Positions 6,201-54,840 of a stretch of 64,000 bases of DNA are shown one piece after another. The position numbers and the translations under genes were made by a program. The notes beneath the pieces were generated by a model. That model was not told where the DNA came from, ran no database searches, and was given only the letters and a program-made list of their open reading frames with translations. Numbering within the stretch: position 1 is the stretch's first letter; every line of letters begins with the position of its first letter. The DNA comes from Massalongia carnosa (lineage: Eukaryota), in NCBI GenBank assembly GCA_965645245.1, contig OZ287084.1, positions 1,116,001 to 1,180,000 on the forward strand. Reading direction: 5' to 3'.

Positions 6201-7282
6201 TCGAAAGATCAAAAGAAACAGCAAAGTCAAGTTATTATTCGACTTTATCAAAAATTCAATCAATAAACGCCGATAAATCGCAAATTTTACTCTATACCGA
6301 TGGATCAAAAACCGAGTTTTCAACTTCCGCTGTCACATTTGCACCAATTACGCGAAATTGGAACAATTTCACCGATAACTTCAATCGTTTTATCGAAAAA
6401 GATTGTCTCCTCAAACATCATACGATTTCGAAAAGCTGGAAATTAAACAAACAGTCAAGCGTTAAAAACGCTGAACTGTATGCGATACTACAAGCAATAA
6501 AATGGGCATACAAATTGACAATTGCGAATATTCTCTTCAATTTGGAAAAAACGATTTGGATTTTTTCCGATAGCATAAACGCGATAAACGAAATTCAGAA
6601 CTTGACAAATCATACTTACGCAAAACAAATTCGAAAATTCTCGAAATGCTTATTCGGAAACAATTATCAGGTGGTTCTACAATGGATTCCTGGTCATTCG
6701 AAAATCGTCGAAAATGAAATTGCAGATAAAGCAGCAAAAGCGGGACATAGTCGAATCCTAGTCGAGTCTTCGATAATAACATTTGATTATGTGAAGGGTC
6801 AAATAAATCGAAATATGTTAGCCACATGGGCGAATCAATGGCAACAATGCAAGTCAAAAGGCAAATACTATGAGAAATTCGAAATGCAGCCGGGCAAATC
6901 AAGTTTTTATTATCTGTCGAATAATTGTTCTAAATTAATATTTGCAACTATTATGCAAATGAAATTCGGACACAGTTATTTTCGATCATATCTGCACCGA
7001 TTGAAAGATTATATTTCGTCAAAATGCACAGGGCGCTGCAACGAACGTCAAACGCCAGAACACTTATTGATGAATTGCATACATTATTCAAATGAAATCC
7101 TAAACATGAATCAAAATATCGATACCACAATTACTTTAAAAATTTTGTTTAATACTAGGATCGGAAATAATATTTTGATTAAATTTATTGTTGATAACAA
7201 AATCGCGACTAGAAAATGGATGCTAGGTCAGCTCGATGACGAAAAAATCGAAACGGGAGGTTGGGGAGAGATCGAACAGTAA
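3269..7282 (+). pseudogene. LINE ORF2 (APE endonuclease - RT - RNase H - C-terminal Cys/His motif) with one in-frame TAG at 3608-3610
   Basis: APE motifs QHNCAK, FQEP, GDFNAHH, IDLTF, GSDH; RT motifs LDVKGAFD, GIPQGSPISP, FIDD; RNase H motifs YTDGS, AEL, FSDS, WIPGH, NEIAD. Other copies have Lys where this one has TAG. Confidence 0.92.
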
Positions 7283-7514: not shown

Positions 7515-8991
7515 TGAACTCCGAAAAATTATGTCAAGACATCGTCGAGAATGGAAGAATTATTCCTCCGATTTTAGTCATAGAACCTTTAAACATAGCC
7601 GAATCGAATATTTTCATGCAATTCGAAAAGCAAAACAACAAACTTGGTTGACTTTTCTAGAAAATGCAGCGAATAAAGACGTATTTACAGCGTATAAATA
7701 CACTAAACCGCGAATATTCAAAAAAATACCACCCAATTCAATATGAAAATAAATTAAATGTTCAATTCGATAACAAATGCGATGCATTTCTTGCAGCTAT
7801 GTACACAAAAAACCTAATTATAGACGATAATGTCGAAGACTTATCGAATCAAGACAACGAAGATGACAATAATTGGCCGGATTTGACCGAAAACGAGTTG
7901 CAAAATGCGATTAGTTTGTTTAATCCGAAAAAAGCATGTGGCCCTGATGCAATCAACTTTACAATTGTTCAAAAATCGTTTCAATCGTTGAAAAACGTGT
8001 TTTTTATGATTTATTCAAAATTCATTCAAACCGGTTATCATCCGTTATGCTGGCGGACAGGACTCGGTGCAGTTTTGAAAAAACCTAATAAATCAGATTA
8101 TTCGCTGCCAAAATCATATCGGATTATCACTTTACTAAACTGTCTTGGTAAAATTGCTGAGAAAATCGTTGCAAATCGCCTTGCCTACTTCGGCGAAAAT
8201 TCGAATTTATTAGACATCGAACAGATGGGCGGACGCAAAAATCACTCTGCAATTGACGCAGTAATGACCGTCGTTCATGATATCGAAATAGCAAACCGAA
8301 AAAAGAACGTTTTATCATGTTTATTACTCGACATCAAAGGCGCATTTGACTTTGTATCGATTAATCAGCTGTTAAATGTCATGAAAAATCTCAAATTATC
8401 TCGCATAGTTATTCAATGGGTCAAAAAATTTATGACAAAACGATCGGTCAATCTAATATTCGATGAAAATAAAAGCAAAACCTATTATGTCGAATCAGGA
8501 ATTCCAAAAGGCTCACCTATTTCGCCTATATTATTTTCGATCTACATTCGTCACTTATTTCCGAAAGTACGAATGAAATTCAATGCACATTCTCCTAGTT
8601 TTATAGACGATATTGCAATATATGTCGAAAATAAAACTGCAAAACAGATTTGCAAAGAAATCGAAATCATAGTAAAAACTGCATTTGATTGGGCCGCATC
8701 GAATAATGTCAAATTTGATGACGAAAAATCCGAACTGATTCACTTCGAAAAGACAAGAAATGCATCGAAAGACACACTGCAATTACCAAACGGAACTATA
8801 CTGGAACCGAAAAATGTAGTCAAATGGTTGGGAATCTGGCTAGATCGAAAACTGAATTACAAAAAACACGTCGAAACTCGAATTTCTTCTGCAAATCTTA
8901 TTTGTAAAATAAAACCATATCTTAAAATAGTTTAGTATCATAACCTTAGGTTGAATACACTTAATGAATAAATAAAATAAAATAAAAAAAA
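7515..8991 (+). mobile_element. LINE (subfamily B) ORF2 RT fragment, target of A1; jumps at 8897/8898 directly to a ~94-bp LINE 3' tail
   Basis: ORFs 7531-7746 and 7664-8935 are frameshifted RT sequence; after ETRISSAN the sequence becomes 3' UTR plus A-rich tail. Confidence 0.85.
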
Positions 8992-10788: not shown

Positions 10789-13700
10789 ATCAATTTCGAA
10801 AAAGTGTTTGACAATCGATAAAAGCTCGATTTACCAGGTTGCATTTCAAATTTCTCGTAATATTTGCCTTTCGACATGTATCGTTCTCATCGATTAGTCC
10901 ATGTGTTAAGCGCATTTTGATTAATTTGACTTTTCAAATAGTCGAATGTGATCGCCGAAGTCTCCGCTAGGATTTGACAGTGACCCGCTTTCGCCATTTT
11001 GTCTGCAATTTCGTTTTCGATAAGTTTCGAATGACTAGGTATCCATTGCAGAATTATCTGCTACTTGTTTTCGAATAAATATTTTGCAATCTTTCGAAAT
11101 TTCTTTGCGTAAATATGATTTGTCAAACGTTGAATTTCGTTTATCGCGTTTAAACTATCGGAAAAAATCCATATCGTTTTTTCTAAATTCGATAATATGT
11201 TCGCGTTAGTTAATATGTATGCCCATTTGACTGCTTGTAAAATCGCATGCAGTTCAGCATTTTTAATGCTTGACTATTTGCTTAATTTCCAGCTTCTGTA
11301 AATTGTATGATGTTTAATAAAGCAATCTTTTTCGATAAAGTGATCGAAATCATCGATAAAACTGTTTCATTTTCGCATAATTGGTGCAAATGTGACAGCA
11401 GAAGTTGAAAATTCGACTTCTGATCCGTCCGTTTAAAGTAATATTCGTGATATATCGGAATTCATCGATTGAAGTTTGGACAAAGTCGAATAATAACTCA
11501 ATTTTGCTGTTTCTTTTAACTTTTCGATTTGAAAGTCGATTTTACACGACGACTTCCATGGTTTTATAAAGTTAATTGATTGTTCGAATTCATCAGTTTT
11601 GTGAACTATTTCGAAAACGGAGTGCAGAACGCGAATAAGCTGACTAGGATGTCGTTTATTTGTTTGTTTTTCGTCTTCGTTCCATTCGGCATTTTGTTGT
11701 TCCATAAGCTAGTATCAAAACCGATGTTTTCGAATTTCATAGAATACGTGTTTGGAATTCTTTGACAAATGGGATTATTTTCGGCAATCTTCAACAATCG
11801 AATAGCATATTTTTGATTTTTCATCGATAATCGTAGTTCGACGAGTAAAATATGTGATTCAATTTCCATCGCCTAAACAGGTGTACTTTTGAATGTTCCT
11901 AAAATCTTTCGAATCATCCGATTTTGCAAATTCTGAAATAATTTTTCATATTTCTTTTGACCATTGTACCAAATTTCTGAACCATAATCCGAAATAGGAA
12001 CGATGCATGACAAATAAAGCTGTCTGCATGCAGTCGGTTTAAGACCCCATTCCGAGTTCATCAAATTTTGAATAGCAAAGAACGACCGTTTTGCAGATGA
12101 AATTCGAGTTTCGACGTGTTTTTTGTAATTCAGTTTTCGGTCTAGCCAGATTCCCAACCATTTGACTACGTTTTTCAGTTCTAGTATAGTTCCGTTTGGT
12201 AACTGCAGTGTGTCTTTCGATATATTTCTTCTCTTTTCGAAGTGAATCAGTTCGGATTTATCGTCATCAAATTTGACATTATTCGATGCGGCCCAATCAA
12301 ATGCTGTTTTAACTATAATTTCGATTTCTGTGCAATTCTGTTTTGCTGTTTTGTTTTCGACATATATTGCAATATCGTCAATAAAACTAGGAGAATGTGC
12401 ATTGAATTTCATTCGTACTTTCGGAAATAAGTGACGAATATAGATCGAAAATAATATAGGCGAAATAGGTGAGCCTTGTGGAATTCCTGATTCAACATAA
12501 TAGGGTTTGCTTTTATTTTCATCGAATATTAGATTGACCGATCGTTTTGTCATAAAACGTTTGACCAACTGAATAACTATGCGAGATAATTTCAAATTTT
12601 TCATGACATTTAACAGCTGATTAATCGACACAAAGTCAAAAGCGCCTTTGATGTCGAGTAATAAACATGATAAAATGTTCTTTTTTCGATTTGCTATTTC
12701 GATGTCATGGGGACGACGGTCATGACTGCGTCAATTGCAGAATGATTTTTGCGTCCGCCCATTTGTTCGATGTCTAATAAATTCGAATTTCCGCCGATAT
12801 AGGCAAGGCAATTTGCAACGATTTTCTCAGCAATTTTACCAAGACAATTTAGTAATGTTATAATTCTATATGAGTTTGGCAGCGAATAGTCCGATTTATT
12901 AGGTTTTTTTCAAAACTGCACCGAGTCCTGTTCGCCAGCATAACGGATGAAAACCGGTTTGTATGAATTTTGAATAAATCATAAAAAACCCGTTTTTCAA
13001 CGATTGAAACGGTTTTTGAACAATTGTGAAATTGACTGCATCAGGTCCACATGCTTTTTTCGGATTAAAAAAACTAATAGCTTTTTGCAACTCGTTTTCT
13101 GTCAAATCCGGCCAAATATCTTCATCTTCATTGTCTTGATTCGATAAATCTTCGACATTATCGTCTATAAATGTGTTTTTTGTATACATTGCTGCCACAA
13201 ATGCATCGCATTTGTCATCGAATTGAACATTTAACTTGTTTTCGTATTGAATCGGTGGTATTTTTTCGAATATGCGCGGTTTAGTGTACTTATACGCGGT
13301 AAATACGTCTTATTCGCTGCATTTTCTAGAAAAGTTAACCAAGTTTCTTGTTTTGCTTTTCGAATTGTATGAAAATATTCGATTCGACTATGTTTAAACG
13401 TTCTATATCTAAAATCGGATGGATAATTCTTCCATTCTCGTCGATGACTAGACATAATTTTTCGAAGTTCGGTTAAATCTTGCGACCACCAATTTTTCGA
13501 TTTTGCACATATTTTTGTCTTTGGAATAAACAATTCAGCTGCTTCTTTAATAATATCTTGCAAATAAATCGCTGATTCGTCGAATTGATGATTATTCAAT
13601 AAACTTTGAACTTGTGTTTCGTAGCTTATTGAATTTTCATCTAAAAACTTTGTGAACTTGTCCCAATCGGCTTTATTGCAATTGAATTTGTTAGATAATG

Positions 13701-15483: not shown

Positions 15484-16130
15484 AGAACTTTTTATACACT
15501 ATAACTTTAACAGTCAATTGAGCCTCTATTTCTCAGTCATTTGAGTTCCTCCAGAGCAAAAACGGTCTCAGATTGAGTGTAGGAGAGCTCTAGCAAAGCT
15601 CCAGCAGAGTTTTTCTGCTGGTCGCACACCGACGTGATAAAGCGCGCTCTAGAAGTTGGAAAAAATAACAAATACCAACAACCTCACCAAAAATCGCTCT
15701 TTTTTCTTGTCTTCTTCTGTTCTGTTATCGCATGACCTTCAATTATTACTATAAAAATTATCTACAAAAAATATCTACTCTCGCGGGACTGTACAACAAC
15801 TGTCGCGACGTCAAAGTCTTCTAAAGTTCATTCCTTTTTTAAGGTTACGGGAACTTCCGCTAGCACAAATTTTCATAGCATACTTCACGTATAATTTTTA
15901 CACATTCCATTTTCGGCTTTATCGATCTTCGTTGAACGACAGGTCAACAGATCACTGAAAAGAAGGGGAAAAACGTCTGGAATAGGATTATATCAAAGGT
16001 TCTGTTTCAGATTAATCAGAATAGGAAGTCTCCTATTGTCTTACATTGCATTAAAATCTATCTTTATTGAAAAAAGAAAAAAAAACTTTCATTATTTTCA
16101 CCTATTGTAGTGTCTGGTAAAGGGTTAAAT
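15484..16130 (+). mobile_element. LINE 5' UTR fragment (B/C type)
   Basis: Reverse complement of ~48196-48830. Confidence 0.8.
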
Positions 16131-16532
16131 TGTCAAGGACTGGGTTAGGGATTGAACTAATATTCCTAAGACTGGGATTGGGTGATCAAGATGTCTTTAT
16201 TAATGAAGCTATAGCTAGGGGATGGTTTGCTATACAAGACGTCGGACGAGGAGTTGTCACGATTCTACACGGCACGACCTCGGCACTCGGCACCGCCTAG
16301 GGCAATCGTAGATGGAACACGCAGGCGCTTTCGATTTCGTTCCCGCAGCTGCTAGAAGGTTTCATGACGACTATACCACATGGGTACTAGCGAAGTAGAG
16401 GATATATAGGGGCAGGTTCTGGTTGTCGATTGTCTTTTTCCTTCTTCATCTTTATTGTATTCGTTTCTAGTGTCCCTATGACTTGTCTCTAGGTAGATCA
16501 TAATATTACAATAAAGATCGTCTTCATCTATT

Positions 16533-16666
16533 ATCCTACGTGAGGGATGTAAAAGAACTCACCGAATCGAGGACTGAAGAAAGAACGACCCTTTCATTAG
16601 GCAAGTCGTACGAACCAGAGCCAGAACCACCAGAACCAGAAGGCCGCCACCCCTACAGCGTGGCAC

Positions 16667-16702
<36 letters not shown>

Positions 16703-17150
16703 GGCCGCCACCCCTACAGCGTGGCACCCAGAACCAGAACCAGAACCAGAAGGCCGCCACCCGTACAGCGTGGCACCCAGACCCAGAACCCGAACCAGAA
16801 GGCCGCCACCCCTACAGCGTGGCACCCAGACCCAGAACTCGAACCCAGAAGAACCATCCTCGGTGGCGGATGTAAAAGAAATCCACATCGGAACGACAAC
16901 GAGCGACCCTTGCACTAGGCCAGTCGTACGGACCAGAACCACCAGAACCTTCAGAACCACCCAGACCCAGAAGAACCATCCTCGGTGGCGGATGTAAAAG
17001 AACCCCACATCGGAACGACAACGAGCGACCCTTGCACTAGTTAGGCCAGTCGTACGAACCAGAACCAGAACCAGAACCAGAACCACCAGACACCAGACAC
17101 CAGAAACCAGACAGCAGGCACCAGACACCAGACACCAGACCCCAGACACC
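16533..17150 (+). repeat. Repeats inside element X: (CCAGAA)n and CCAGACA runs, 4x GGCCGCCACCCCTACAGCGTGGCACCCAG-like unit, 2-3x ~100-bp module
   Basis: Read directly from sequence. Confidence 0.85.
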
Positions 17151-17925
17151 AAAGTACTGACTGCACCGAAATTACCGGAAAATCGACGAAAGAGCTTGGA
17201 AAGACACGGGAAACCTTGGCAAAGAATCGGAAGCACTTCAGCTAATGAACCAGTTTCACCGCTGATTACTGACTGCCTGCACCGCTTGCACCGCCTAGTT
17301 CGCGCTCAGGTGATCGCGATTTAAAGCGAAGGGTAGTGTCACGATTCTACACGGCACGACCTCGGCACTCGGCACCGCCTAGGGCAATCGTAGATTGTCA
17401 CGAAATCAGGTCGAGGGCAAGGGCAAAGGCAAGGTGGGTTGATGGTCAAGCTTATTGATTGAGTCTATAGCTATGAATCTAGGCTAGGCTAGGTTGGCTA
17501 TTCAAGACGTTCGACAAAGAATCAGAACTTCCATTATTCGACTTCTTTCTTATATCTTTGTCCTCCCATATTCATCTCTCTAGGGTGGCGGCGAATGATG
17601 TCTAGTCAGTGCGATGATGAATGAGGGGCATTATAGCGGCAATAAGCACGATGGGGTCAGCGAGGAGACGGGAGATGTCAAACATCAATGCGAAGCTATT
17701 AGACATGATAATAGTCGAAAGACGGGAATAAATCATCAATGCGAGGCTGATTAATGATCAGTAATCGGCGAATTCGAAGAATGATATGAGGGTCCCGAAG
17801 GCATGGCACGACGTCCGTGAGTAGTCATCAGATCAAGGCACGCGATAGAGGCACGTGGTGAGGTCGGAGGCATTTCATGACAGTAGCTCCCCCTTCAAGG
17901 CAGAGCTCCTGCGATGCCATCTTAT

Positions 17926-20900
17926 CTATGCCTCGTGGCATTGGCAACGGGGAATTTGACAGGGGTTTAGATGAGGGCCGGCCGCATTGGGATAGGCTTG
18001 GTGGTATTCGTCTATGACTTGCTGACAATTGATGAGATAGTTGAAAGGCTCCCAGGTGGAAGGATGCCCTTCCCAATCCACTAGGTATTTCAGAAGCGGG
18101 GGTTGAAAACGTCGGTCGAGCTTGGAATTCAATACCCTATTGACATACCATTCTCGTTGGCCATCTTCGGCGATGACGGGGTCTCTAGGCTCCGGTCTCT
18201 GCCCGGGGAGGGGGTCATTGGCATCATGCTGCAACAGATTGACGTGAAAGACGGGATGGATTTTGACGGTATCGGGAAGCTCCAGCTGTACGATCAAGGG
18301 GTTGGAAAACACCTTGCTGACGCGGTAGGGGCCGATATTTCGGTCATCCAGCTTGACTGTGGGGCGAGCGGTTTGGATATTTCTGGTGCTTAGCCACACC
18401 ATATCGCCAACGAAATAGCGGGGGCAGGGACGTCGGTTAGCATTTGTAGTTGCTTCGTACGAAGCTTGGGCCATCAGCATTTCGTCTCGAAGATGAGTAT
18501 CGATATCCTGCATCTTATTCACGAACTGATTGGCTGCAACTAGGTTTGCTCTGCCCTGAGCGGTTAGGTCTTGCGGCAGGGGTTCCTCCGGTTCAAATCC
18601 CATGCGGGGATGTTGCCCGAAGTTGGCTAGGAAGGGGGAGGCCAGGATACTAGATGAATCGGTGTTATTGCTGGCGAATTCGGCGCCAGGAAGCCATTGT
18701 GCCCAGTCATCCTGCATGTAGTTGACATAAGCCCTTAGGTAGTGCTCCATGGTGGCGTTGGCTCGCTCGGTCTGCCCGTCGGTCTCCGGGTGGTATCCGG
18801 TGGATAGCTTGGCGTCGATTTTCAGCCTCTTGCACATGAGCTGCCAGAAATCGGAGACGAATTGGGGGCCACGATCAGAAACCATGGCTTCGGGAAGCCC
18901 ATGTAGTTTCCAGACATTCTGATAGAACGCATCGGCGGCGTCTTCAACTTCCATGGACGTGATAGGAATGAAATATCGCATCTTGGACAGGCGATCTATA
19001 ACCACCAAGATGTAGTGATAAGTGATTCCCATGAAGGTGCTGAGGGTCAGGGGGCCTACATAATCTATGGAAATATCCCGCCATCTGCGCTCGGGGGGGG
19101 GGAGTAGGCGTAGCCAGCCCTGATAGCGCTGGCGGGATGGTTTTGATCTTCTGCAAGTGTGGCAGTTTCGGATAAATCGCTTGATGGACTGATGCATGCT
19201 GGGCCACCAGTAGGATCGATTTACCAACTCATGGCATTTGGAACGGCCCGGATGTCCGCCGGCGACGCTATCGTGAGCGAGTTGAATGATACGAAGCCTC
19301 AGACGATCGGATCGAGGTACGTATTTCTTGTTTCGAAAATACAAGATACCGTCCCTATCTTCGCATTCGGCTAATTGGATTCGATTGTGATGCCTCTCGT
19401 TATTACGAAGAGCTTCCAGGACTTCGGGGGCGAATTGGTCTCGTGTCAGGGCTTGTTCCCAGAGGAGCTCCGTGGAGATATCCTCATCGGGATCGATGAT
19501 GTCCTCATCTAGCTGAGGTTCTGCTTCTTCGATATCTGCATCATCTAGGAAAGCTGGTGCCAGAAGAATAGATCGCAAATAACTTTTTGCGACTTCCCCA
19601 TCCAGGTTTTCGGTTTTCAAAATGGTTTGGTGTTGAAATTTCCTTCGCTCGTCCGTATCATCCCCTTCTTTAGGAAGATCTCCCGATCGACGAGTTAGAG
19701 CGTCCGGTTTTCCTCCGGCTTTTCCTGGTCGATAGACTATCTTGAAGTCAAATCGAGAGAGAAATTCGCTCCATCTAGCTTGGCGACGGCTGAGCTGCTT
19801 GGTGGAGGCAAAATATTCCAGGTTTTTGTGGTCGGATATGACGCTGATGGGGAAGGCAGATCCTTCTAGTTCGGGTCGCCATTCTTCAAAATATCGAACG
19901 ATTGCCATCAGTTCTTTGTCATAGATCTCGTAGTTGCACTCGGCGGGATTGTGCTTCTTTGAGAAGTAGGCGACGGGGTGAAGTATCCCATCATCGTCGT
20001 ATTGAGAAAGAATGCCCCCCGAAACATAGTCGGAGGCATCGGTTTCGACGATGATGGGACGATCGGGGTCGAAATGCCTGAGAATGACATCGGAGGTGAA
20101 AGCTTTTTTCAGCATTTCGAATGCCAATTGGCATTTGTCAGTCCACAGGAATTCCATCTCCTTCTTGGTCAGGTTGGTTAGGGGGCCAGCTATGTCGCTA
20201 AACCCATACACGAATCGTCTATAAAAGTTAGCAAAACCCAGAAAGCTTTGCACATCTTTCACATTGACGAGGTTTGGCCAATTGACGACGGTTTCCACCT
20301 TGGCCGGGTCCAATTTTATCCCTTCGGTGGTCACGATCATCCCTAGGTATGCAAGTTCGGTGACATGGAACTTGCACTTGGTGATGTCGGCTTGCAGGCC
20401 TGCATCTCGGAGTCGAGACAGGATTTTTTTGACGTGGACCTCGTGCTCCAGCTCATTGTCACTGTAGATGAGGATATCATCTAGGTACGCAGTGCAAAAG
20501 TCAGCAAGATACTCGTGAAGCGTATCGTTGATGAAGTACTGAAATGAGGCGGGCCCGTTGCATAGGCCGAAGGGTAGGACCAAGGACTCGAAAAGGCCGA
20601 AACGAGTGCGAAAAGCGGTGAGTTCTTCGTCTCCTTCTCGTATACGGAGCATATTGAAGGCGGCGATGATGTCTATCTTGGTGAATATCTTGGCTTTGAT
20701 TAATTGGTGCAGGGTCTCGGCGATCAAGGGCAGCGGATAGCGATCCCTAATCGTGATGGCATTCAGAGCACGATAATCCACGCAAAATCGAAGTCCCCCA
20801 CCTGGCTTTTTCACGAACATCACCGGGGAGGCGGCGTGGGAGCGACTAGCCCGAATAAATCCCTTGGCTAGATTTTCGTCGAGGTAGCGGCGGAGCTCCT

Positions 20901-22380
20901 CGATTTCGGTACGACTCATACCATACAGGGCCTGACTAGGGGCCTGCGTACCTTCTTTCAGGTTTATGGCATGATCGTAGGGACGGCGGGGGGGCAAGTC
21001 TTCGGATTTCTTCTTCGAGAAGACATCTAGGAATTCGTGGTATTGCTTGGGCAGAAGGGGGGCTGGGTCGACGTTCTTACTTTCTCGGTAAGCGTCTAAC
21101 TCTTCACGAGTCACGGCGGTGGCTAGGGTTAGGGCCTTATTCATCTTAAATAAGGCTAGGTGGATTTCTTTCTCGTGCGGGCTTGCTCGAGATGGCAATG
21201 GTTGGTAGGCTGGGCTGGGTTTTTTGGCTTTTTCGATCAAATCGGGGGCTGAACTAGGTGAGGCTTTCATTACTAGAGGTTCGGGGTTGGTTTTTCCTAG
21301 AAAGAGGTCAATTTCTTTCATGGACAGGGCGAAACTATCGTGGTTTTTCTTCCGAGTCAGTCGATTGAAGGAGATAGCTCCGATTTCGCAGACATTCATC
21401 TGCGGGGTGGTTTTGCGTGCTGCTTGATGAGCACGTCTTTGGGTGGATGTCCGCAATTTGGACGGGCTTCGGTATCGGATTTTCGGGGGGGGAAGCCCTT
21501 GCTGAATTGCATTTTCAATGCGACTGGGTTCATCGGTGGGGTTTTGAGGCTGGGGTTCGGGTTCATTGATTTCGGGGTTGATTAAGGTGAAATCGCGCGG
21601 CGCGGTTTTGAACAAAGGGATAGATTCCTCGATTTTGACGGGATTGTCAGGAATGGAATTTTTGATTGTGGGAATTTCTTCCCCCTCTTCTAGAGAAGTT
21701 ATCGACGTTCTGATAGACGTGTCTTGATTGATAACTTTTCCTAGGGCGTCTTCGAGGATCTCTTCATCACAGATTTTTCGACTCTCGGCTGGGGTGAGGA
21801 ATTCTTCCTCAACGGCTTGAAGCTTGACGGGGTGGGGGCAACAGTGAGTGAGGCAGTAGGGGGAGGCAAAGGTGAGCGTATTATGCCCAAAATCGGCTAT
21901 GGCGTTATGCCGGCGGAGCCATGGATGGCCCAGGATAATGGGATAATTTTTTAACCCGGTGACATATAGAAAGAGTTTTTCTACATGACCTTCTAGATCC
22001 ATGGTGATTTCGGCCACATGAGTGATATTGCCAGATAGAGCCCTTTGGCCGTCGAATCCTTCGAGCCGGCGGGGATATTTGAGAAGATGAAGGGGAATTT
22101 GGTTAGTATGCGCAAATTTCTCATCGATGAATGAAAAGCCAGATGCACTACAATCAATTAGATTATACGTTCTAATCCTAGATTTAGATAATCGCAAGAT
22201 ACCTGTCATCACCATGTGACTGTCTCTGAACGTCTTATCTGATTCAAACAGCTCCAAAGCGGAGGCTGCGGAAAATCGCGTATTGGATCTCAAAGAGGGG
22301 GAAAAACTGGCCATCAAACATGAGGAAATGAGAAGGGGGGGGAGTCCCTGCACGCGACGAAGTGCAGAGACTAGGCTTTT
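17926..22380 (-). CDS. pol: Gypsy-1 Pol (protease, RT, RNase H, integrase, chromodomain), -1 frame relative to gag
   Basis: [30 protein letters not shown] zinc finger, integrase core, C-terminal EWYVNRVLNS...YLVDWEG...TWEP. Confidence 0.93.
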   Translation of the reverse strand, partial: KSLVSALRRVQGLPPLLISSCLMASFSPSLRSNTRFSAASALELFESDKTFRDSHMVMTGILRLSKSRIRTYNLIDCSASGFSFIDEKFAHTNQIPLHLLKYPRRLEGFDGQRALSGNITHVAEITMDLEGHVEKLFLYVTGLKNYPIILGHPWLRRHNAIADFGHNTLTFASPYCLTHCCPHPVKLQAVEEEFLTPAESRKICDEEILEDALGKVINQDTSIRTSITSLEEGEEIPTIKNSIPDNPVKIEESIPLFKTAPRDFTLINPEINEPEPQPQNPTDEPSRIENAIQQGLPPPKIRYRSPSKLRTSTQRRAHQAARKTTPQMNVCEIGAISFNRLTRKKNHDSFALSMKEIDLFLGKTNPEPLVMKASPSSAPDLIEKAKKPSPAYQPLPSRASPHEKEIHLALFKMNKALTLATAVTREELDAYRESKNVDPAPLLPKQYHEFLDVFSKKKSEDLPPRRPYDHAINLKEGTQAPSQALYGMSRTEIEELRRYLDENLAKGFIRASRSHAASPVMFVKKPGGGLRFCVDYRALNAITIRDRYPLPLIAETLHQLIKAKIFTKIDIIAAFNMLRIREGDEELTAFRTRFGLFESLVLPFGLCNGPASFQYFINDTLHEYLADFCTAYLDDILIYSDNELEHEVHVKKILSRLRDAGLQADITKCKFHVTELAYLGMIVTTEGIKLDPAKVETVVNWPNLVNVKDVQSFLGFANFYRRFVYGFSDIAGPLTNLTKKEMEFLWTDKCQLAFEMLKKAFTSDVILRHFDPDRPIIVETDASDYVSGGILSQYDDDGILHPVAYFSKKHNPAECNYEIYDKELMAIVRYFEEWRPELEGSAFPISVISDHKNLEYFASTKQLSRRQARWSEFLSRFDFKIVYRPGKAGGKPDALTRRSGDLPKEGDDTDERRKFQHQTILKTENLDGEVAKSYLRSILLAPAFLDDADIEEAEPQLDEDIIDPDEDISTELLWEQALTRDQFAPEVLEALRNNERHHNRIQLAECEDRDGILYFRNKKYVPRSDRLRLRIIQLAHDSVAGGHPGRSKCHELVNRSYWWPSMHQSIKRFIRNCHTCRRSKPSRQRYQGWLRLLPPPERRWRDISIDYVGPLTLSTFMGITYHYILVVIDRLSKMRYFIPITSMEVEDAADAFYQNVWKLHGLPEAMVSDRGPQFVSDFWQLMCKRLKIDAKLSTGYHPETDGQTERANATMEHYLRAYVNYMQDDWAQWLPGAEFASNNTDSSSILASPFLANFGQHPRMGFEPEEPLPQDLTAQGRANLVAANQFVNKMQDIDTHLRDEMLMAQASYEATTNANRRPCPRYFVGDMVWLSTRNIQTARPTVKLDDRNIGPYRVSKVFSNPLIVQLELPDTVKIHPVFHVNLLQHDANDPLPGQRPEPRDPVIAEDGQREWYVNRVLNSKLDRRFQPPLLKYLVDWEGHPSTWEPFNYLINCQQVIDEYHQAYPNAAGPHLNPCQIPRCQCHEA

Positions 22381-23513
22381 CCCTGATCAATATCAGGGGC
22401 TTCGAGCTCCATGCTCCGAAGGTTGGTTCGCTTGTTGGGACAGTCAGTTGCTGACTTCCCTGGATGCTGCAATTTGCAGTAGAAACACAACTTCCAGTCT
22501 TCGCAGATTTTGCGGACCCCCTCGGTTTTGAGCGATTGGCCTTTCACCGCTGCCATGGCAGAGCTTAGGTCCATGGGGTCGCCAATAAGCAGCGCAGGGG
22601 AGGCGGGAGAAGCGACAGGTGCTTTGGCAGCGGGAGCGACTGTCGGGGGAAGTGCTGATAACGGGTTTGGCTTTTTCGGTGTCGGGGTGATAGTGGTGGT
22701 GTTCGCCTTTGGGGCAATGTGGCGGATCTGCCGAAGGCCACGATCTGTCTCCAACCACATGGTGACGTGCTCGTCGAAGGTGGTTGGTTGCCTTTGGGTT
22801 CCGGGGACCCTATACATTAGGGCTGCGGTCTGGGTTGAATAATTCACATTTGCCTTCATGGCATCGATCAGGCTGGCATCTTCCATCTTGGACCGGTCTT
22901 TTTTCTGCGCAAAAAGGTTGTAGTACTCCTCGAAGCTACTACTTCCCTGTTTGAGGATATCGCGAAGGTATTTGCGAGCATCCTCCTGCTCGTAGGGATT
23001 TCCGCATGCGCGGCGGAGGGCTGATCGCTATTCAGCAAATGAGGTGAGTACGCAAAGGCCATCGACCCTGTACGCATTCATTAGGTTATGAGCCTTTTTG
23101 CCTATGGTGAGTCGGCTTTCGGCATAGGCAATTTTGGCTTGATCGAACGGGTATCGATCATTGTTGACATGCATTCTTTGAATCAGGGACTGCTCCCACG
23201 CATCCAGCTTGACTTCTTCGCCCTCATACTCCGTGATGTCCGGGAGCTTTTCGGAGCGGATGAGGGAGTTTTTTGACGCCAGGAGCAGCTGCATCATGGC
23301 CATGATTTGCGGATCCAAGGTAGGGGGGGGTGGATTTGAGATAGGTATGGGCTCGGAAATAGAAGGGGTATTGGCATTGTTGCGAAGTTGGTTTACTTCG
23401 GCTTCTAGGTTGTCCATTTGACTCAGGAATTGCTGAGGGTCTGCCTGAAGACGTTCCTGAATGAATCGAATACGCTTATCCAGCTCGGAGAGGTTCTCTT
23501 CTGCTGAAGACAT
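22371..23513 (-). pseudogene. gag: Gypsy-1 Gag with one in-frame TAG at 23028-23030
   Basis: ORFs 23028-23513 and 22371-22886 share a frame; PMDL motif and CFYCKLQHPGKSATDC knuckle. Confidence 0.88.
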
Positions 23514-24600
23514 GATTGAGGGGGAATGAGATAAAGGGAGATGAGGGAAAATGCTAAGGAAGGCACTTTTGAATGTTGGTCGAACGTAATGTCACGAAAT
23601 CAGGTCGAGGGCAAGGGCAAAGGCAAGGTGGGTTGATGGTCAAGCTTATTGATTGAGTCTATAGCTATGAATCTAGGCTAGGCTAGGTTGGCTATTCAAG
23701 ACGTTCGACAAAGAATCAGAACTTCCATGATTCGACTTCTTTCTTATATCTTTGTCCTCCCATATTCATCTCTCTAGGGTGGCGGCGAATGATGTCTAGT
23801 CAGTGCGATGATGAATGAGGGGCATTATAGCGGCAATAAGCACGATGGGGTCAGCGAGGAGACGGGAGATGTCAAACATCAATGCGAAGCTATTAGACAT
23901 GATAATAGTCGAAAGACGGGAATAAATCATCAATGCGAGGCTGATTAATGATCAGTAATCGGCGAATTCGAAGAATGATATGAGGGTCCCGAAGGCATGG
24001 CACGACGTCCGTGAGTAGTCATCAGATCAAGGCACGCGATAGAGGCACGTGGTGAGGTCGGAGGCATTTCATGACATAGATGGAATACGCAGGCGCTTTC
24101 GATTTCGTTCCCGCAGCTGCTAGAAGGTTCCATGACGACTATACCACATGGGTACTAGCGCAGTAGAGGATATATAGGGGCAGGTTCTGGTTGTCGATTG
24201 TCTTTTTCCTTCTTCATCTTTATTGTATTCGTTTCTAGTGTCCCTATGACTTGTCTCTAGGTAGATCATAACAGGAGTCAACTATCTACAGGATATGTCC
24301 TCTTTTTATACCTGAGCCAGCCCCTTCTTTCTCATGTTTTACCTTCACCCTAGATGAGAGATTTTGGTGATGGTGGCGGCGATAAGGTGGAGCGATAAGT
24401 GGGCCCGTGGATGTGATCGTTCTAGCGATAAGAGGGTATAGTGGAGTGAGGAGATTGGTGGAGTGGAGTAAGGGGTTTATTCAGACTCATACCGAGGATG
24501 AATCTGAATAGGCTTTCAGGTGGCTTTTACCTCGATCGCCGCTTGACGGTTCGGTAATCATTAGGTTTTAACTCAAACTTTATTTCATGATATCATAACA

Positions 24601-25467
24601 TCTTTGACAAATGGGATTATTTTCGGCAATCTTCAACAATCGAATAGCATATTTTTGATTTTTCATCGATAATCGTAGTTTGACTGGTAAAATATGTGAT
24701 TCAATTTCCATCGCCTAAACAGGCGTGGTTTTGAATATTCCTAAAATCTTTCGAATCATCCGATTTTGCAAATTCTGAAATAATTTTTCATATTTCTTTT
24801 GACTATTGTACCAAATATCTGAACCATAATCCGAAATAGGAACGATGCATGACAAATAAAGCTGTCTGCATGCAGTCGGTTTAAGACCCCATTCCGAGTT
24901 CATCAAATTTTGAATCGCAAAGAACGACCGTTTTGCAGATGAAATTCGAGTTTCGACGTGTTTTGTGTAATTCAGTTTTCGGTCTAGCCAGATTCCCAAC
25001 CATTTGACTACGTTTTTCGGTTCTAGTATAGTTCCGTTTGGTAACTGCATTGTGTCTTTCGATAGATTTCTTCTCTTTTCGAAGTGAATCAGTTCGGATT
25101 TATCATCATCAAATTTGACATTATTCGATGCGGCCTAATCAAATACTGTTTTAACTATAATTTCAATTTCTGTGAAATTCTGTTTTGCTGTTTTGTTTTC
25201 GACATATATTGCAATATCGTCAATAAAACTAGGAGAACGTGCATTGAATTTCATTCGTACTTTCGGAAATAAGTGACGAATATAGATCGAAAATAATATA
25301 GGCGAAATAGGTGAGCCTTGTGGAATTCCTGATTCAACATAATAGGTTTTGCTTTTATTTTCATCGAGTTTTATTTTGACCGATCGTTTTGTCATAAAAT
25401 GTTTGACTCATTGAATAACTATGCGAGATAATTTCAAATTTTTCATGACATTTAACAGCTGATTAAT
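24601..25467 (-). pseudogene. LINE ORF2 RT fragment (subfamily E copy E', left half)
   Basis: ORFs 24715-25050 and 25135-25395; continues at 49194 through TSD AGCTGATTAAT. Confidence 0.88.
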
Positions 25468-26510
25468 CAAGAAATGCATCAAAAGACAAAGTGCAATTAC
25501 CAAACGGGACAATACTAGAACCGAAAAATTCTGTCAAATGGATAGGAGTCTGGTTAGACCGAAAACTAAATTACAAAAAACACGTCGAAACGCGAATTGT
25601 TTCTGCAAATCGATCGTTTTTCGCAATTCAAAATTTGATGAAGTCTGAATAGGGACTAAAGCCAACTGCATGTAGACAGCTCTATTTGTCATGCATTATT
25701 CCTATTTCGGACTATGGCTCAGAAATCTGGTATAATGGTCAAAAGAAATATGAAAAGCTATTTCAGAATCTGCAAAATCGAATGATTCGAAAGATTTTAG
25801 GCACATTCAAAACAATACCTGTTCAGGCGATGGAAATTTAATCGCATATTTTACCAGCCAAGCTTCGATTGTAGATGAAAATCAAAAATACGCAATTCGA
25901 TTATTGAAGATTTCCGAAAATAATCCTATTTGTCAAAGAATTCCCAGTACCTATTCGGTGAAATTCGAAAACATCGGTTTTGACCCTAGTTTATGGAACA
26001 ACAGATATGCTAAATGGAACGAAGACGAGAAAAATCGATTAAACCTCATCCTAGTCAGCTTATCGTTATTCTTTATTCCGTTTCGGATACAGTTCACAAA
26101 ACTGATGAATTCGAATCAGTAAATAATTTCATCAAACCATGGAAGCCGTCTTGTAAAATCAAGTTCCAAATCGAAAGATCAAAAGAAACAGCAAAGTCAA
26201 GTTATTATTCGACTTTATCATAAATTCAATCAATAAACTGTCACGGTACTGCCTCGCTAGCACCCGAATCGAGTCACGGCGCTAAGGCTTGAATGATAAG
26301 CGAAGGCTAGGCTCAGCATGGTTAGCGAGATCAACGGAAAGATTATATCTTTGCTTTCGCTGTTGAGATTTTCTTTCTTCCTTGTCGAACGTCTTGTAAA
26401 TATCCGATAGCCTACATATAGCAAAGACTTCGTACCACCTGATCTTATCTCATTGAGTCCTTCTCGTCACACTACGTTCGACCTACCCTATCAGCTGGTA
26501 CGCCTTTGCC

Positions 26511-27689
26511 ATGGCCGAAGCATCGCCCCCGTCCCCATACATCGTTCCAACTCCTCCCGTTTCCGTGGGTTCTGCGGAAAATTTGTTGTCCGCAGTTCAA
26601 TCTAATCCCATAACCTGGTATGAGTATATGCAGCGCCTGGATCTATTCGCCCACGATGCCAGTACGCATCTGGATACCAATGATCGCGATTTAGCAGAGG
26701 CGAATCACGCGATCCTAGATTTGAACAACAGACTGGCTGGTAGTAACGCGATAGCTGCCGAGCTTCGTGAACAAATACGATCCGCCCCCACCGCAGTCGC
26801 ACATTCATCTCCGCGTTCAGAGAAACATCCTGATCCGCCTATGTACGGCGGAGACAGAGCCGAATTACGCACATGGACTACTCAGCTTCGTCTGAAACTC
26901 TTGATGAACGCAGATCGATACCCCACCATGCCAGGAAAATTAGCGTACGCGATAAGTCGTCTCAAGGATACGGCCTTGTATCAGATTCGTCCTTATATCA
27001 AGGATGACGACACTATCGATCTGCGCGATGTTAGCGAGCTGATTACCGAGCTGGAGCTGGCCTTCGGTGATCCGGACAGAAAGGCCACCGCACAGCGAGA
27101 ACTTCGTCGCCTCCAGCAAGCAAACCGAGAATTCCATGTATATCTGGCCGAGTATCAGCGGTTGATCCCCAATACTGGATACAACGAAGAGGCGAAACGA
27201 TCGATCCTGCTAGAAGGCATTAGTAATGAGCTAAAAAGCGCCATCCTGACGCTTGATCTTCCGACCGACCTAGACGAGGTCATTCAGATTCTCCAGAAGA
27301 TCGACAACCGCTACCGCGCCACCCAGGCCTCCATCCGCAAAGCTGGGACTGTCTTTAGCAACACATCACGATCTAGCTCTGCACCCACTATCGCCGCTGT
27401 CAGCAAACCCACACCCGCTCCCGCTCCCACCGTCACCACCACCACCAAAATCTCCGCACCCCCCTCCTCTGACGCCATGGATCTATCAGTATCTCGTCAT
27501 CGAGGCCCTCTTACCCCCGCCGAGAAATCACGAAGAATGAACGAAGGATTGTGCATGTATTGCGGGGGATATGGACATTTTGCGCAATCCTGCCCGCTAT
27601 CCTCGTCCAAAACACGCCCGCGATTCCAAGTCTCTGAAATGGAACAGAAGACTGTTGATTTGGGGGGAAAAGTACAGTCTCCGAACTAA
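26511..27689 (+). CDS. gag: Gypsy-2 Gag (392 aa)
   Basis: Retrotransposon gag-like core, AMDL motif, CMYCGGYGHFAQSC zinc knuckle. Confidence 0.9.
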   Translation: MAEASPPSPYIVPTPPVSVGSAENLLSAVQSNPITWYEYMQRLDLFAHDASTHLDTNDRDLAEANHAILDLNNRLAGSNAIAAELREQIRSAPTAVAHSSPRSEKHPDPPMYGGDRAELRTWTTQLRLKLLMNADRYPTMPGKLAYAISRLKDTALYQIRPYIKDDDTIDLRDVSELITELELAFGDPDRKATAQRELRRLQQANREFHVYLAEYQRLIPNTGYNEEAKRSILLEGISNELKSAILTLDLPTDLDEVIQILQKIDNRYRATQASIRKAGTVFSNTSRSSSAPTIAAVSKPTPAPAPTVTTTTKISAPPSSDAMDLSVSRHRGPLTPAEKSRRMNEGLCMYCGGYGHFAQSCPLSSSKTRPRFQVSEMEQKTVDLGGKVQSPN

Positions 27690-30600
27690 GTCGCGTTCGG
27701 AGACCAACACGGAACAAGTGTATTTCAATATCAGCATTTTCCTTGTCCACCAAACCTTTGCCAGAAGAAGAATTAGATGGCAAACATTTGGTGATATCAA
27801 TGATTGTATCCATAGGTAATCGTCAAATAAAGACCTATGCACTAGTTGACTGTGGAGCATCTGGTTTTGCTTTTATTGACTCTTCGTTCGCGCGCCGTCA
27901 TTCCCTGCCCCTATCCCCCTTGAAGCAATCTCGTATCCTCGAATTAGCCAATGGACAACCCATCTCCTCTGGTGAAATCACTCACCTAGCCTTACGTCTT
28001 CAAATCGCCACGCATTCCGAGCCCGCCAACCTTCTCGTCACCAATTTGGGCCACTACCCCATCGTTCTAGGGATCAAGTGGCTACAGATACACGACACCA
28101 GTATACGATGGGCTGGAAACACTCTCTCGTTCACGTCACCATACTGTCTTCAGCACTGCCTCGAGAATCATGAACCCAACACTGTCGTCGGAATAAGCAA
28201 CGTTCCAGAACTTCGTGCAGAGAAGGAGCACCCCGCCGCAGTCATGAAAGTCACTAGTCCGGAACAACGAACATCCGCTTCAGACTAGCCCGGCCGGTCT
28301 GAAGGAAAGGGCGCTAAATTGAAGAGGTCTAGCGCCCCCTCCTTCGACCAATCAGATCCAGACCCAAGATCCAAGACCCCGCCCGAGACTGAGAAACCTG
28401 AGACCGAGAAACCTGAGACCGAGAAACCCGAGAACAAGAAACCCCTGAATATCTGCATGATAGGAGCCGCCCCTTTTGTCCGTCTTGCGCGGAAAAAGGA
28501 CTGCGAACTATTTACCGTGAACCTTAGAGACATTGAACGAGCCCTGACCCCGAAACCGGAAGTTGATCCCGCTACAATATTGCCGCCGGAGTATCACGAA
28601 TTTCTTGATGTATTTTCCAAGAATGAAGCTGATAAACTGCCCGAATGCCGTAGCTATAACCACACTATTCTGCTGATGGAAGGGAAAGAACCCACGTATG
28701 GACCCTTGTATGGCATGAGCCGAGATGAATTGCTGGTACTGCAGAAGTATCTTACCGAGAATTTGGAGAAAGGATTTATTCGTTCAAGTTCTTCCCCCGC
28801 CGCGTCCCCAGTACTGTTTGTCAAAAAGCCGGGCGGAGGCCTGCGCTTTTGCGTTGATTATAGAGCATTGAACGCTATGACTATCAAAAACAGATATCCC
28901 CTGCCCCTGATCAGAGAAACTCTAGACCGCCTGAGTAAAGCATGCATTTTTACTAAGCTAGATATAGTCGCCGCATTCAATCGCCTTCGTATGGCCTATG
29001 GAGAGGAGTGGAAAACCGCCTTTCGGACAAGATACGGTTTGTTTGAATATCTCGTTATGCCCTTCGGTCTCGCCAATGCACCCAGTTCGTTTCAGCATTA
29101 TATCAATGATGTTTTACGAGAATATCTCGATATATTCTGTACCGCTTATATCGACGATATATTAATCTACAGTAGTTCCATGAAAGAATATAAGGGTCAT
29201 GTCACTAAAGTTTTGAAGGCTCTGCAAAAAGCGGGGTTACAACTGGATATTTCGAAATGCGAATTCCATGTAACGGAGACAATATATCTTGGATTTATTA
29301 TTTCGGATAAAGGCATAAAAATGGACCCTAAGAAAATAGAGACCATAAAGAACTAAAATACCCCGAAGAACCTCAAGGATGTGCAGGCGTTTATAGGATT
29401 TGCGAATTTCTACAGACGGTTTGTGATATCCTTTTCAAAGATCGCTGCCCCCCTCACCGCTATGTCTAAAAAGATTACGCCATTCGTGTGGACCGAAGAG
29501 TGTGCAAAGGCCTTTAAAAGCTTAAAGGATGTGTTCTCCAGTGACACCATAATAATTCATTTCGACCCCGATAAGGAAAACATAGTGGAAACAGATTCTT
29601 CCGACTATGTAAGCGCAGGAGTACTATCACAGTATGAGGTAGAGGGTGTACTTAAACCAGTAGCCTTCTTTTCCAAAAGACTATCGCCAGCGGAGTGTAA
29701 TTATGAAATCTATGATAAAGAACTTCTGGCCATTATCAGAGCTTTTGAAGAATAGAGACCCGAATTGCAAGGAGCAGCACATCCAGTAAAGGTAATAACA
29801 GACCATAAGAATCTCGAGTACTTCACTACCACCAAGCAACTCAGCAGGCGCCAGGCAAGATGGGCCGAATTTTTATCACGATTCGACTTTAAGATAGGTT
29901 ACAGACCAGGGAAACAAGGAGAAAAACCAGATTCTTTGACTAGAAGATCAGGAGATCTTTCTAAAGAGGGGGACCTGAGACTGGAACATCAGAATCAGGT
30001 GGTAATAAAACCCCATAATTTCGAACTTCTGGCTAATAATCTGCTTCGCCTGACCGATATTACCAACGATGACGCTGATACGGATAATGATCTAGAAACC
30101 GAACATGAAGACTCCGAGAAATCTATCGAGGAATTGATGAATCAAAGATACGAGCTGGACCCATTCCCCAATAGCATTTTGACTCTTCTTCGAAACGGTG
30201 CTAGCCATAGCAAGGATATAACTCTGGCCGAATGCGAAGACCGAGATGGGAGACTATATTACCGCGAACGCCTATACGTACCCGATTTCCATGATTTGAG
30301 ACTCAGACTATGCAAGGAACACCACGATAGCCCTGTCGCCGGTCATCCCGGTAGAGCCAAAACTTTCGGTTTGCTATCTCGAACTTATTATTGGCCTCAG
30401 TACCATCATTTCGTAGCACGATACGTACAGAACTGTCACGTATGTTCTCGTAGCAAAGCTTCCCGTTATCCAAAGTACGGTGTGTTAAGACCTCTGCCCA
30501 TTCCTCAGCAACGCTGGAGAGATATTTCCATAGACTTTGTAAGCGGCATACCCGAATCCGGTAGTGACAAGAAAGACGCAATCCTGGTTGTAGTTGATCG

Positions 30601-31606
30601 ACTCACCAAGATGAAGCATTACATACCGTGCAAAGAGACTACCAACGCTCACGATTTAGCCAAGTTGTATCTGCAGAATGTATGAAATTACACGGCCTGC
30701 CCGAATCAATAGTCTCGGATCGCGGAGGGCAGTTCATCTCGGAATTCTGGAAGGCTCTATGTGAAAGACTAGGAATTAAGTCGGCCCTATCCACATCCTT
30801 TCACCCGGAGACAGATGGCCAAACGGAACGATTCAATGCAGTCATGGAATCATATTTAAGAGGCTACGTAAATTACATGCAAGATGCCTGGGAAGAATAG
30901 CTACCAATGGCAGAGTTCACTAGCAACAATGTTGATTCCGAGACCACTACGACAAGTCCCTTTTTAGCGAATTATGGCTTCCACCCCCGTCTAGGTTTCG
31001 AACCTCTCTCTCGCACCAACAACTCCCCAGAGCTCACCAATGCTGATGAATTTGCTACCAAGATGGAAGAGATTAATGCCCACCTTCAAAATGAAATGCG
31101 ATTGGCTCAAGCTCGGTATGAATCCACTGCTAATTATCATAGAACCCCCGCACCGTCGTTTCGCGTAGGAGACGAAGTCTGGTTGAATGCTAAGAATATC
31201 AAAACCAAGCGACCTTCTAAAAAGCTGGATTGGAAGAAGTTAGGAAGATTTACCATCAAGCGAGTAGTAAGTAAGTATGCTTACGAACTTGATCTCCCTA
31301 CCTCTAAAAATACACCCTGTATTCCACGTTTCTCTGCTAGAGCCGGTTGCTCAGAACCCACACGATGGCCAAATTCCTCCACCTGCCCCGCCGGTTGAAG
31401 TTGAAGGTGAAGAAGAGTGGGAGGTGGAGAGTATTCTTGATTCGAGATTTTTCCGAAGACGACTGCAATATCTTGTTAAGTGGGCCGGCCATGACGCACC
31501 TAGTTGGAATGAAGAAAAGGACATCACTCACTGCGAAGATTTATTACGAGAATATCACCAACTGAGGCCTACCAAACCTAGAGGTTCTCGCGGAGCTCGA
31601 ACCTAA
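27665..31606 (+). pseudogene. pol: Gypsy-2 Pol (PR-RT-RH-IN-chromodomain), disrupted
   Basis: LVDCGASG, YIDD, ETDSS, HHCC, chromodomain EEWEVESILDSR; stops at 28286, 29354, 29753 and 30898; frameshifts near 30683 and 31305. Confidence 0.92.
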
Positions 31607-32069
31607 AGAGGAGACCTGATGTCACGGTACTGCCTCGCTAGCACCCGAATCGAGTCACGGCGCTAAGGCTTGAATGATAAGCGAGGGCTAGGCTCAGCAT
31701 GGTTAGCGAGATCAACGGAAAGATTATATCTTTGCTTTCGCTGTTGAGATTTTCTTTCTTCCTTGTCGAACGTCTTGTAAATATCCGATAGCCTACATAT
31801 AGCAAAGACTTCGTACCACCTGGTCTTATCTCATTGAGTCCTTCTCGTCACATAAACGCCGATAAATCGCGAGTGTTACTCTATACCGATGGATCAAAAA
31901 CCGAGTTCTCAACTTCCGCTGTCACATTTGCACCAATTATGCGAATTTGGAACAATTTCACCGATAACTTCAATCGTTTTATCGAAAAAGATTGTCTCCT
32001 CAAACATCATACGATTTCGAAAAGCTGGAAATTAAACAAACAGTCAAGCGTTAAAAACGCTGAACTGTA

Positions 32070-32879: not shown

Positions 32880-33528
32880 TTCGAAATGAAACCTGGCATA
32901 TCGAGATTTTATTATTTATCAAACAACTGTTCCAAATTGATATTTGCCACTATTATGCAATTAAAATTCGGACACGGCTATTTTCGATAATATTTACATC
33001 GATTGAAAGATTATAATTCGTCAAAATGCTCAAATCGATGCAATCAACGACAAACGCCAGAACACTTGTTATTGAATTGCATTCACTATTTCGATGAAAT
33101 TCAAAACATGAAACAAACCATCGATACTACGATCAACTTGAATATGTTGTTTAATACAAAAATCGGAAATGACATTTTGATTAAATTCATTGTCAATAAC
33201 AAAATCGCGACTAGAAAATGGATACTAGGTCAGCTTGATGACGATATTTTCGAAATTGGAGGTTGGGGAGAGATCGAACAGTAAAATCAGAAACGATTTA
33301 TGCTGAAACAGTTACGAACTTACAAAGATAAATTGTAAAATCGATAATTTTCGATTACTATAGGTTGTTACTAACACGGAGTAAAAATGGGGAAAAATTG
33401 ACGATACATAGATGGGTTATAAAGGGTTGATTTATTTGTAATATAGAAACATATCCTAAAATAGTTTAGTGTCATAACCTTAGGTTGAATACACTTAATG
33501 AATAAATAAAAAAAATAAAAAATAAAAA
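32880..33528 (+). mobile_element. 5'-truncated LINE (subfamily D): ORF2 end, 3' UTR and tail
   Basis: EMKPGISRFYY...GGWGEIEQ*, terminal motif and A-rich tail. Confidence 0.9.
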
Positions 33529-54828: not shown

Positions 54829-54840
54829 GGTTATGAGCCC
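54829..54840 (+). promoter_or_regulatory. Copia primer-binding site GGTTATGAGCCC
   Basis: Immediately 3' of the LTR; complementary to the initiator tRNA-Met anticodon stem-loop GGGCUCAUAACC. Confidence 0.85.

Follow-up and report, generated by a model that had tools for sequence, protein, structure and literature searches.

A small gene-less LTR element of Massalongia carnosa with a putative primer binding site complementary to its own LTR

The DNA analyzed here, a 64-kb stretch of Massalongia carnosa contig OZ287084.1 (hereafter the window; all coordinates are window positions), carries a small long terminal repeat (LTR) retroelement which contains no genes and whose putative primer binding site (PBS) complements a sequence within its own LTR. 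Four other LTR elements are present in the window, namely a chromovirus nested in the small element and three elements designated E2, E3 and E4.

Anatomy of the small element and its insertion site

The small element spans 16255-24273, i.e. 8,019 bp, of which 1,333 bp are its own once the 6,681-bp nested chromovirus and the 5-bp target site duplication (TSD) of the latter are subtracted. Its anatomy (Table 1) was established by direct reading of the letters, a repeat search and BLAST. It has the structural features by which LTR retrotransposons are recognized, namely paired LTRs flanked by a short TSD, a PBS and a polypurine tract (PPT), and a first-pass annotation of this DNA had correctly described a 1.33-kb element with 251-bp LTRs, a GGAGT duplication and a purine tract. 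The interruption of the 3' LTR by the nested chromovirus was only implied there, through the coordinates. Between the 5' and 3' LTRs there are 4 differences over 251 positions (1.6% divergence), and LTR termini are TG...CA in the 3' and solo copies and TG...TA in the 5' copy. The solo LTR, which the same annotation had noticed together with its different TSD, is 97.6% identical to the LTR of the small element over 249 nt (BLAST) and shows that the family inserted independently at a second site.

Table 1. Features of the small element and other LTR elements of the window
Feature	Position	Strand	Basis or remark
Left TSD, GGAGT	16250-16254	+	Direct reading
5' LTR, 251 bp, TGTCACGA...ATCATAATA (TG...TA)	16255-16505	+	Repeat search, BLAST, LTR alignment
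TATATA, putative TATA box (predicted function)	16403-16408	+	Start 45 nt upstream of putative self-primer
Putative self-primer ATCTTTATTGTA, predicted transcript 5' end	16448-16459	+	Identical in 3' LTR and solo LTR
Putative PBS TACAATAAAGAT, exact reverse complement of 16448-16459	16507-16518	+	One base past LTR
Non-coding interior, 831 bp	16506-17336	+	Repeat search, six-frame reading, Pfam, Rfam
Polypurine-like tract AAAGCGAAGGGTAG, 11/14 purines, adjoins 3' LTR	17323-17336	+	Direct reading
3' LTR, first 59 bp, 100% identical to 16255-16313	17337-17395	+	Repeat search, BLAST
Nested chromovirus, splits 3' LTR of the small element and is not part of it	17396-24076	-	6,681 bp, TSD TAGAT
Nested chromovirus, putative PBS	23579-23587	-	Read on minus strand
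Nested chromovirus, putative self-primer	23701-23709	-	Read on minus strand
3' LTR, remainder, ends ...ATCATAACA (CA)	24077-24273	+	24077-24081 = duplicated TAGAT of nested insertion
Right TSD, GGAGT	24274-24278	+	Direct reading
E2, Ty3/gypsy	26239-31852		gag, RT, integrase in broken frames
E3, Ty3/gypsy	38812-45377	-	Open gag and pol frames, chromodomain
Solo LTR of the small-element family	52937-53187	+	TSD AGTCG (52932-52936, 53188-53192); direct reading, BLAST
E4, copia-like	54555-60815		Identical 275-bp LTRs, TSD GTATT

The interior consists of three diverged copies of a module of about 120 bp, with 49/61-bp sub-repeats and (CCAGAA)n, followed from about 17090 by a unique 3' part of about 250 nt. 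Stop codons occur in all six frames, and the longest stretches free of stops, of 248, 139 and 122 codons, correspond to low-complexity translations of the tandem repeats, in which no Pfam family was detected at E<=0.1 and no trace of gag or pol was found. The absence of coding capacity, already claimed in the first-pass annotation, is thus borne out, and the small element is a non-coding two-LTR retroelement. Rfam returned no match at E<=1 over 16200-17450 and ARAGORN no tRNA gene in the entire window; the element is therefore not of the Cassandra, Helenus or retrozyme type. These identities, as well as an Ajax-type one, were ruled out because no 5S rRNA, tRNA-like or hammerhead sequence is present (Rfam, ARAGORN).

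The occupied site itself was compared with public sequencing runs by placing the Logan contigs of four runs, one of which is labelled lichen metagenome, on 15800-24700 (summed contig depths are not copy numbers and were not used as such). In all four runs, contigs join 16248 to 24273, the joint lying possibly up to 6 places further, and thus carry the flanking sequence with a single GGAGT. The small element sits within another LTR, minus-oriented and related to that of the nested chromovirus (16131-16254 and 24279-24600), so that these empty-site contigs come from other, uninterrupted copies of the target LTR; no paralogous empty site was found within the window. Within the target LTR, the insertion point lies between a TATA-like box and the predicted transcription start site (TSS), and the end of the GGAGT duplication is located 2 nt upstream from the putative self-primer of this LTR, GTCCGACGT. 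The sense-strand 5' terminus of the target LTR, TGTTATGAT, is the reverse complement of the 3' terminus of the small element, which we regard as a lead and not as evidence.

Complementarity between LTR and primer binding site

The sequence TACAATAAAGAT, one base beyond the 5' LTR, pairs at 12 of 12 positions with ATCTTTATTGTA inside the LTR. This perfect complement, reported in the first-pass annotation, is well beyond what control sequences yield: of 2000 LTR shuffles, a single one produced 12 matching nt at a distance of 0-6 nt from the LTR end, and none of 1776 windows of 35 nt from the rest of the 64 kb reached 12 nt against the same LTR (the maximum being 10, with one window at 10 and six at 9). 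Similarly, 9 nt was not reached in any of the 15 flanks taken from the five LTR elements as controls. The complement is real and non-random. The primer 12-mer is unchanged in all three LTR copies (5', 3' and solo), and TATATA does lie upstream of it, at a distance of 45 nt when measured from the start of the motif (about 40 nt in the first-pass annotation). A 12-bp primer/PBS helix is present in the minimum free energy fold of a 103-nt model RNA starting at 16448, and the mean pair probability of primer and PBS is 0.96 in a 101-nt model RNA. As the PBS region contains no TGG, a PBS for a tRNA 3' end is excluded by sequence.

The other LTR elements of the window provide a local comparison. The nested chromovirus has 487-bp LTRs which are 99.8% identical (1 difference in 487) and a minus-strand pol open reading frame (ORF) of 1462 aa with Pfam matches to reverse transcriptase (RT), RNase H, integrase, a Tf2-1-type SH3 domain and a chromodomain (24.3 bits, just below the Pfam cut-off of 25.1). 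It is inserted in the U3 part of the 3' LTR of the small element, and its lower LTR divergence (1/487 against 4/251) fits the small element being the older of the two. Read in the same way as the small element, the nested chromovirus and E2 both display the 9-nt putative primer GTCGAACGT, with the PBS 2 nt past the LTR and a TATA-like box 39 and 40 nt upstream, respectively (match reached by 8/2000 and 6/2000 shuffles); primer and PBS are the same in the two elements, whose LTRs are otherwise unalignable. E3 has the 9-nt primer AGCTTTTAG, with the PBS 4 nt past the LTR and a TATA-like box 35 nt upstream (23/2000 shuffles). The self-complementary layout is thus common to all three Ty3/gypsy elements of the window, two of which have a chromodomain match, and the small element uses the priming layout of its surroundings. 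In the copia-like E4, no LTR/PBS complement of 7 nt or more was found. Its PBS region, GGTTATGAGCCC, looks complementary to the anticodon stem-loop of initiator tRNA-Met.

As the complement exceeds chance and the same layout recurs in the Ty3/gypsy neighbors and is absent from the copia-like element, Tf1-type self-priming is the best reading of the small element, and we consider it probable. Under the general retroviral model, the primer serves as the template from which the PBS is regenerated in every new copy; an exact match of all 12 nt, in an element with LTRs already 1.6% diverged, would be what self-priming leaves behind.

The copying cycle that the sequence suggests can be outlined as follows. 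RNA polymerase II would start about 40 nt downstream of the LTR TATATA, at or near 16448, and the first 12 nt or so of the RNA would fold back on the PBS one base past the LTR. The RNase H of a partner RT would then cleave off this 5' segment, which would serve as the primer. The minus strand would be extended through R-U5 (58 nt in all) and then transferred to the 3' LTR, the plus strand would be primed at the purine tract (17323-17336), and the partner integrase would insert the cDNA, duplicating 5 bp of the target. All the proteins required (Gag, protease, RT/RNase H and integrase) would have to be supplied in trans, presumably by a self-priming chromovirus like those with which the window is filled; we infer both the mobilization in trans and the nature of the partner.

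A partner sharing the LTR of the small element is absent from the window. BLAST and alignments revealed no LTR, PBS or untranslated region (UTR) homology between the small element and the three gypsy elements, and when the 5' and 3' ends of the interior were locally aligned with the UTRs of these three elements, z-scores ranged from -1.4 to 0.6, so that no parent element is found in the window. The termini of the small element (TGTCACGA...ATCATAACA) resemble those of its gypsy neighbors only over the first 7-8 nt, the TGTCAYG-type start being shared with the nested element (TGTCATGA) and E2 (TGTCACGG), and a MAFFT alignment of the LTRs detected no homology past the termini. The first-pass view of the element as a parasite of chromoviruses that uses self-priming stands as regards the self-primer layout, seen alike in all three gypsy neighbors; the partner with the same LTR was not found in the window.

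The surroundings of these elements are repetitive as well. Copies of long interspersed nuclear elements (LINEs) with endonuclease, RT and RNase H domains, which we take to be Tad-like, lie at 3611-7282, 7661-8935, 33519-36389, 36866-38845 and 11873-12730. They form the matrix that received the LTR elements, and the 64 kb amount to a transposon nest in which no obvious host gene was found among the long ORFs scanned. The LTR of E3 ends in TA, not CA, on the sense strand.

A dispersed family and its possible origins

Copies of the interior exist outside the window. A protein search with a 225-aa minus-strand ORF of the interior retrieved nine ENA-derived ORF products (P0001-P0009), located on public contigs of six distinct sizes (0.23 to 3.77 Mb). 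With tblastn, all nine map exclusively to 16562-17236, with 70-100% identity and with modules that vary in arrangement and number. As these interior-derived ORFs lie on other public contigs, the interior of the small element is a dispersed multi-copy family and not a one-off. One product, P0003, starts at the equivalent of 17166 and reaches that of 16562 after 100 codons; this copy thus lacks about 315 nt of modules, which suggests that some members of the family may be about 1.0 kb long.

The public runs also reveal variation. Their contigs differ in the joints of the tandem array (e.g. 16925 to 16685, or 16929 to 16630), and an LTR deletion variant joining LTR position 29 to position 114 occurs in three runs. 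In a single run, position 17266 is covered by up to 9 distinct contigs and position 16351 by up to 13, and one contig of 307 nt (17059-17365) spans the purine tract and reaches into the LTR. In one run, the (CCAGAA)n and ACCAGAC microsatellites at 16612-17151 draw unrelated contigs (loose ends at 16667-16702), and depth over this interval is not to be read as copies of the element. Other searches for the family were negative: exact-pattern scans with a 23-nt LTR core gave no match in the metagenome, genome and viral contig collections, nor did a scan of the metagenome contig collection with the PPT/LTR junction, and a protein search with a 49-aa LTR ORF gave no match.

Taken as a whole, the interpretation that the small element belongs to a dispersed multi-copy family with a gene-less tandem-repeat interior, most likely copied by Tf1-type self-priming, has in our estimate a probability of about 0.6. 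Several observations weigh against it, beginning with the missing homology to the three gypsy elements described above. Only a single PBS-bearing copy was seen. For the 5' region of the small element as a whole, the fold energy is not unusual (z = -1.45). In Tf1, as described in passages of PMC10085805, three duplexes form a "pretzel" in which sequences adjacent to the PBS pair with the LTR downstream of the primer. With primer and PBS masked, the small element forms 17 pairs between U5 and leader, and the energy of this duplex is reached by 154 of 500 shuffles; unlike in Tf1, the three-duplex structure is thus not statistically supported. When folding is restricted to nested structures, the probability of the primer/PBS helix is as low as 0.05 for E2 and 0.00 for E3, two elements in which a strong U5/leader duplex competes. 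This latter duplex is reached by 0/500 shuffles in E2 and 1/500 in E3 (381/500 in the nested element), and its position flanking the PBS in E2 and E3 would be as expected for the Tf1 pretzel. Finally, contiguity in the other copies covers 16562-17365 and so starts downstream of the PBS, and these interior copies, seen from 16562 on, may be the 3' UTRs of coding relatives.

This last point leads to the alternative that we consider unlikely while taking it seriously: the small element could have arisen by deletion from an autonomous self-priming chromovirus with the same LTRs, one internal event having removed gag-pol from this copy itself or from a recent progenitor. The interior would then be the long 3' UTR of the coding element, the solo LTR and the other copies would belong to the coding family, and there would be no self-propagating miniature lineage. 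The window indeed holds one full two-LTR copy and one solo LTR (BLAST), with no second full short two-LTR copy seen, and the positions covered by the ORF products and by the 307-nt run contig leave room for coding sequence in the interval from the PBS to 16562. Long tandem-repeat UTRs also occur in the window, as E4 carries an array of about 30 copies of a 51-bp unit (about 1.5 kb, at about 55000-56600) just within its 5' LTR. Against such a deletion, however, the small element lacks any trace of gag or pol, and no coding element with its LTR is present in the 64-kb transposon nest. The gap between pol and LTR is 43 nt in the nested element and about 376 nt in E3, so that a 775-nt 3' UTR would be unusual here, and the number of modules varies among interior copies, as expected of an independently evolving family. 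The multi-copy interior speaks against a one-off, and the lack of a second full short copy agrees with a unique deletion derivative, which the first-pass annotation had listed among the findings that would refute its reading.

Priming by a host tRNA or tRNA fragment, of the copia/Ty5 type or by an anticodon loop as in Helenus, would make the LTR match coincidental or tRNA-derived. In our own reading, the 12-mer ends in TTGTA and could mimic a tRNA-Tyr anticodon loop, and anticodon-loop priming by the Tyr, Ile, Asp and initiator Met tRNAs is described in fungal TRIMs (for terminal-repeat retrotransposons in miniature; PMC10886601), which also counts against self-priming. Yet chance falls far short of accounting for a 12/12 match with the LTR of the element itself, the LTR contains no tRNA-like sequence (ARAGORN, Rfam), and the gypsy neighbors show the same self-complementary layout with other sequences. 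The 12-mer is moreover A+T-rich and, we presume, unlike the stems of cytoplasmic tRNA-Tyr. We therefore regard tRNA priming as very improbable. As for direct repeats created by segmental duplication or by an assembly error, the TG...CA termini, the 5-bp TSDs at two independent sites, the PPT and the empty-site contigs in four of four runs led us to reject them as an explanation of what looks like a retroelement.

Relation to known elements and significance

Self-priming has been proposed for many fungal chromoviruses of the Tf1/sushi group, among which passages of PMC6934838, PMC10085805, PMC4600332 and PMC7175516 list Tf1 and Tf2 of S. pombe, Tj1 of S. japonicus, Maggy, Skippy, Cft-1, Boty, Grasshopper, Afut1 and Tcn1. 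For Tf1, a passage of PMC7175516 has the PBS pairing with the first 11 nt and places the RNase H cut between nt 11 and nt 12. The small element resembles these elements in that a PBS located just past the 5' LTR complements a sequence within the LTR downstream of a TATA box, and in having no tRNA-type TGG PBS and a 5-bp TSD; its primer is 12 nt long, instead of 11 nt in Tf1. It differs from them in lacking gag and pol. RT, RNase H, integrase and chromodomain matches were found in the nested element and in E3, not in the small element, and as the Tf1/sushi clade is defined by pol and chromodomain, the small element cannot belong to it. Compared with the Ty3/gypsy elements of the window, it shares the geometry of the self-complement, the 5-bp TSDs and, with the nested element and E2, the type of termini, whereas its primer ATCTTTATTGTA differs from GTCGAACGT and AGCTTTTAG and no other homology is apparent.

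With TRIMs, the small element shares LTRs of suitable size (251 bp, against about 100-250 bp), the absence of coding capacity, a non-coding interior between PBS and PPT, a 5-bp TSD, solo LTRs and a presumed mobilization in trans. At 1,333 bp, it nevertheless exceeds the total length of less than 1000 bp in the definition of TRIMs quoted in passages of PMC6934838 and PMC10886601, so that TRIM is too strong a label for what the first-pass annotation called TRIM-like. Further differences are an interior dominated by tandem repeats and a PBS which complements its own LTR and not a tRNA 3' end nor, in all probability, a tRNA anticodon loop. The fungal TRIMs known as Helenus are described as using the 3' end or the anticodon loop of a tRNA as primer, and the word "self" does not occur in the text that describes them (PMC10886601); a paper on bivalve TRIMs cites self-priming and proposes no mechanism (PMC6934838). 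Another point of comparison is Tca1 of Candida albicans, presented in a passage of PMC7175516 as a 5.6-kb non-autonomous LTR element without ORFs: like the small element, it is a fungal LTR element which lacks ORFs and yet forms a family, but it is much larger.

No described self-priming non-autonomous LTR element was found in open-access full text and bioRxiv (Repbase and subscription journals being outside this scope), the papers retrieved there mentioning self-priming and non-autonomous LTR elements only apart from each other. This agrees with the first-pass statement that no such element was known. It is possible, though somewhat doubtful, that the small element represents the first recognized family of miniature gene-less LTR retrotransposons with an RT primer in cis. 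To specialists, it should come as a moderate surprise, as the expected combination of two known things; it appears to be a natural case, pared down to a minimum, of a copying trick that is already known, and no new principle.

Tf1 is the one autonomous element on which self-primed reverse transcription has been elucidated, its coding relatives being assigned the mechanism by inference, while non-autonomous LTR elements such as TRIMs are tRNA-primed in the literature examined wherever a primer has been assigned. An exact self-primer/PBS pair in a gene-less element would show that the cis signals of this process are separable from proteins supplied in trans. The minimal cis-requirements of self-primed retrotransposition would then amount to about 1 kb comprising an LTR, a 12-nt primer, a PBS and a PPT, and the small element would be a natural minimal substrate for studying what RT/RNase H recognizes. 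It would also raise the question of whether a parasite that brings its own primer escapes the helper specificity imposed by tRNA packaging. With the primer within its own RNA, such a parasite would have no need to match the tRNA choice of its helper, and could be mobilized by any co-resident chromovirus whose RT/RNase H recognizes the fold-back duplex. If this is true, the small element would live at the expense of the Tf1/sushi lineage as a "primer-independent" hyperparasite, in what is probably a lichen-associated fungus.

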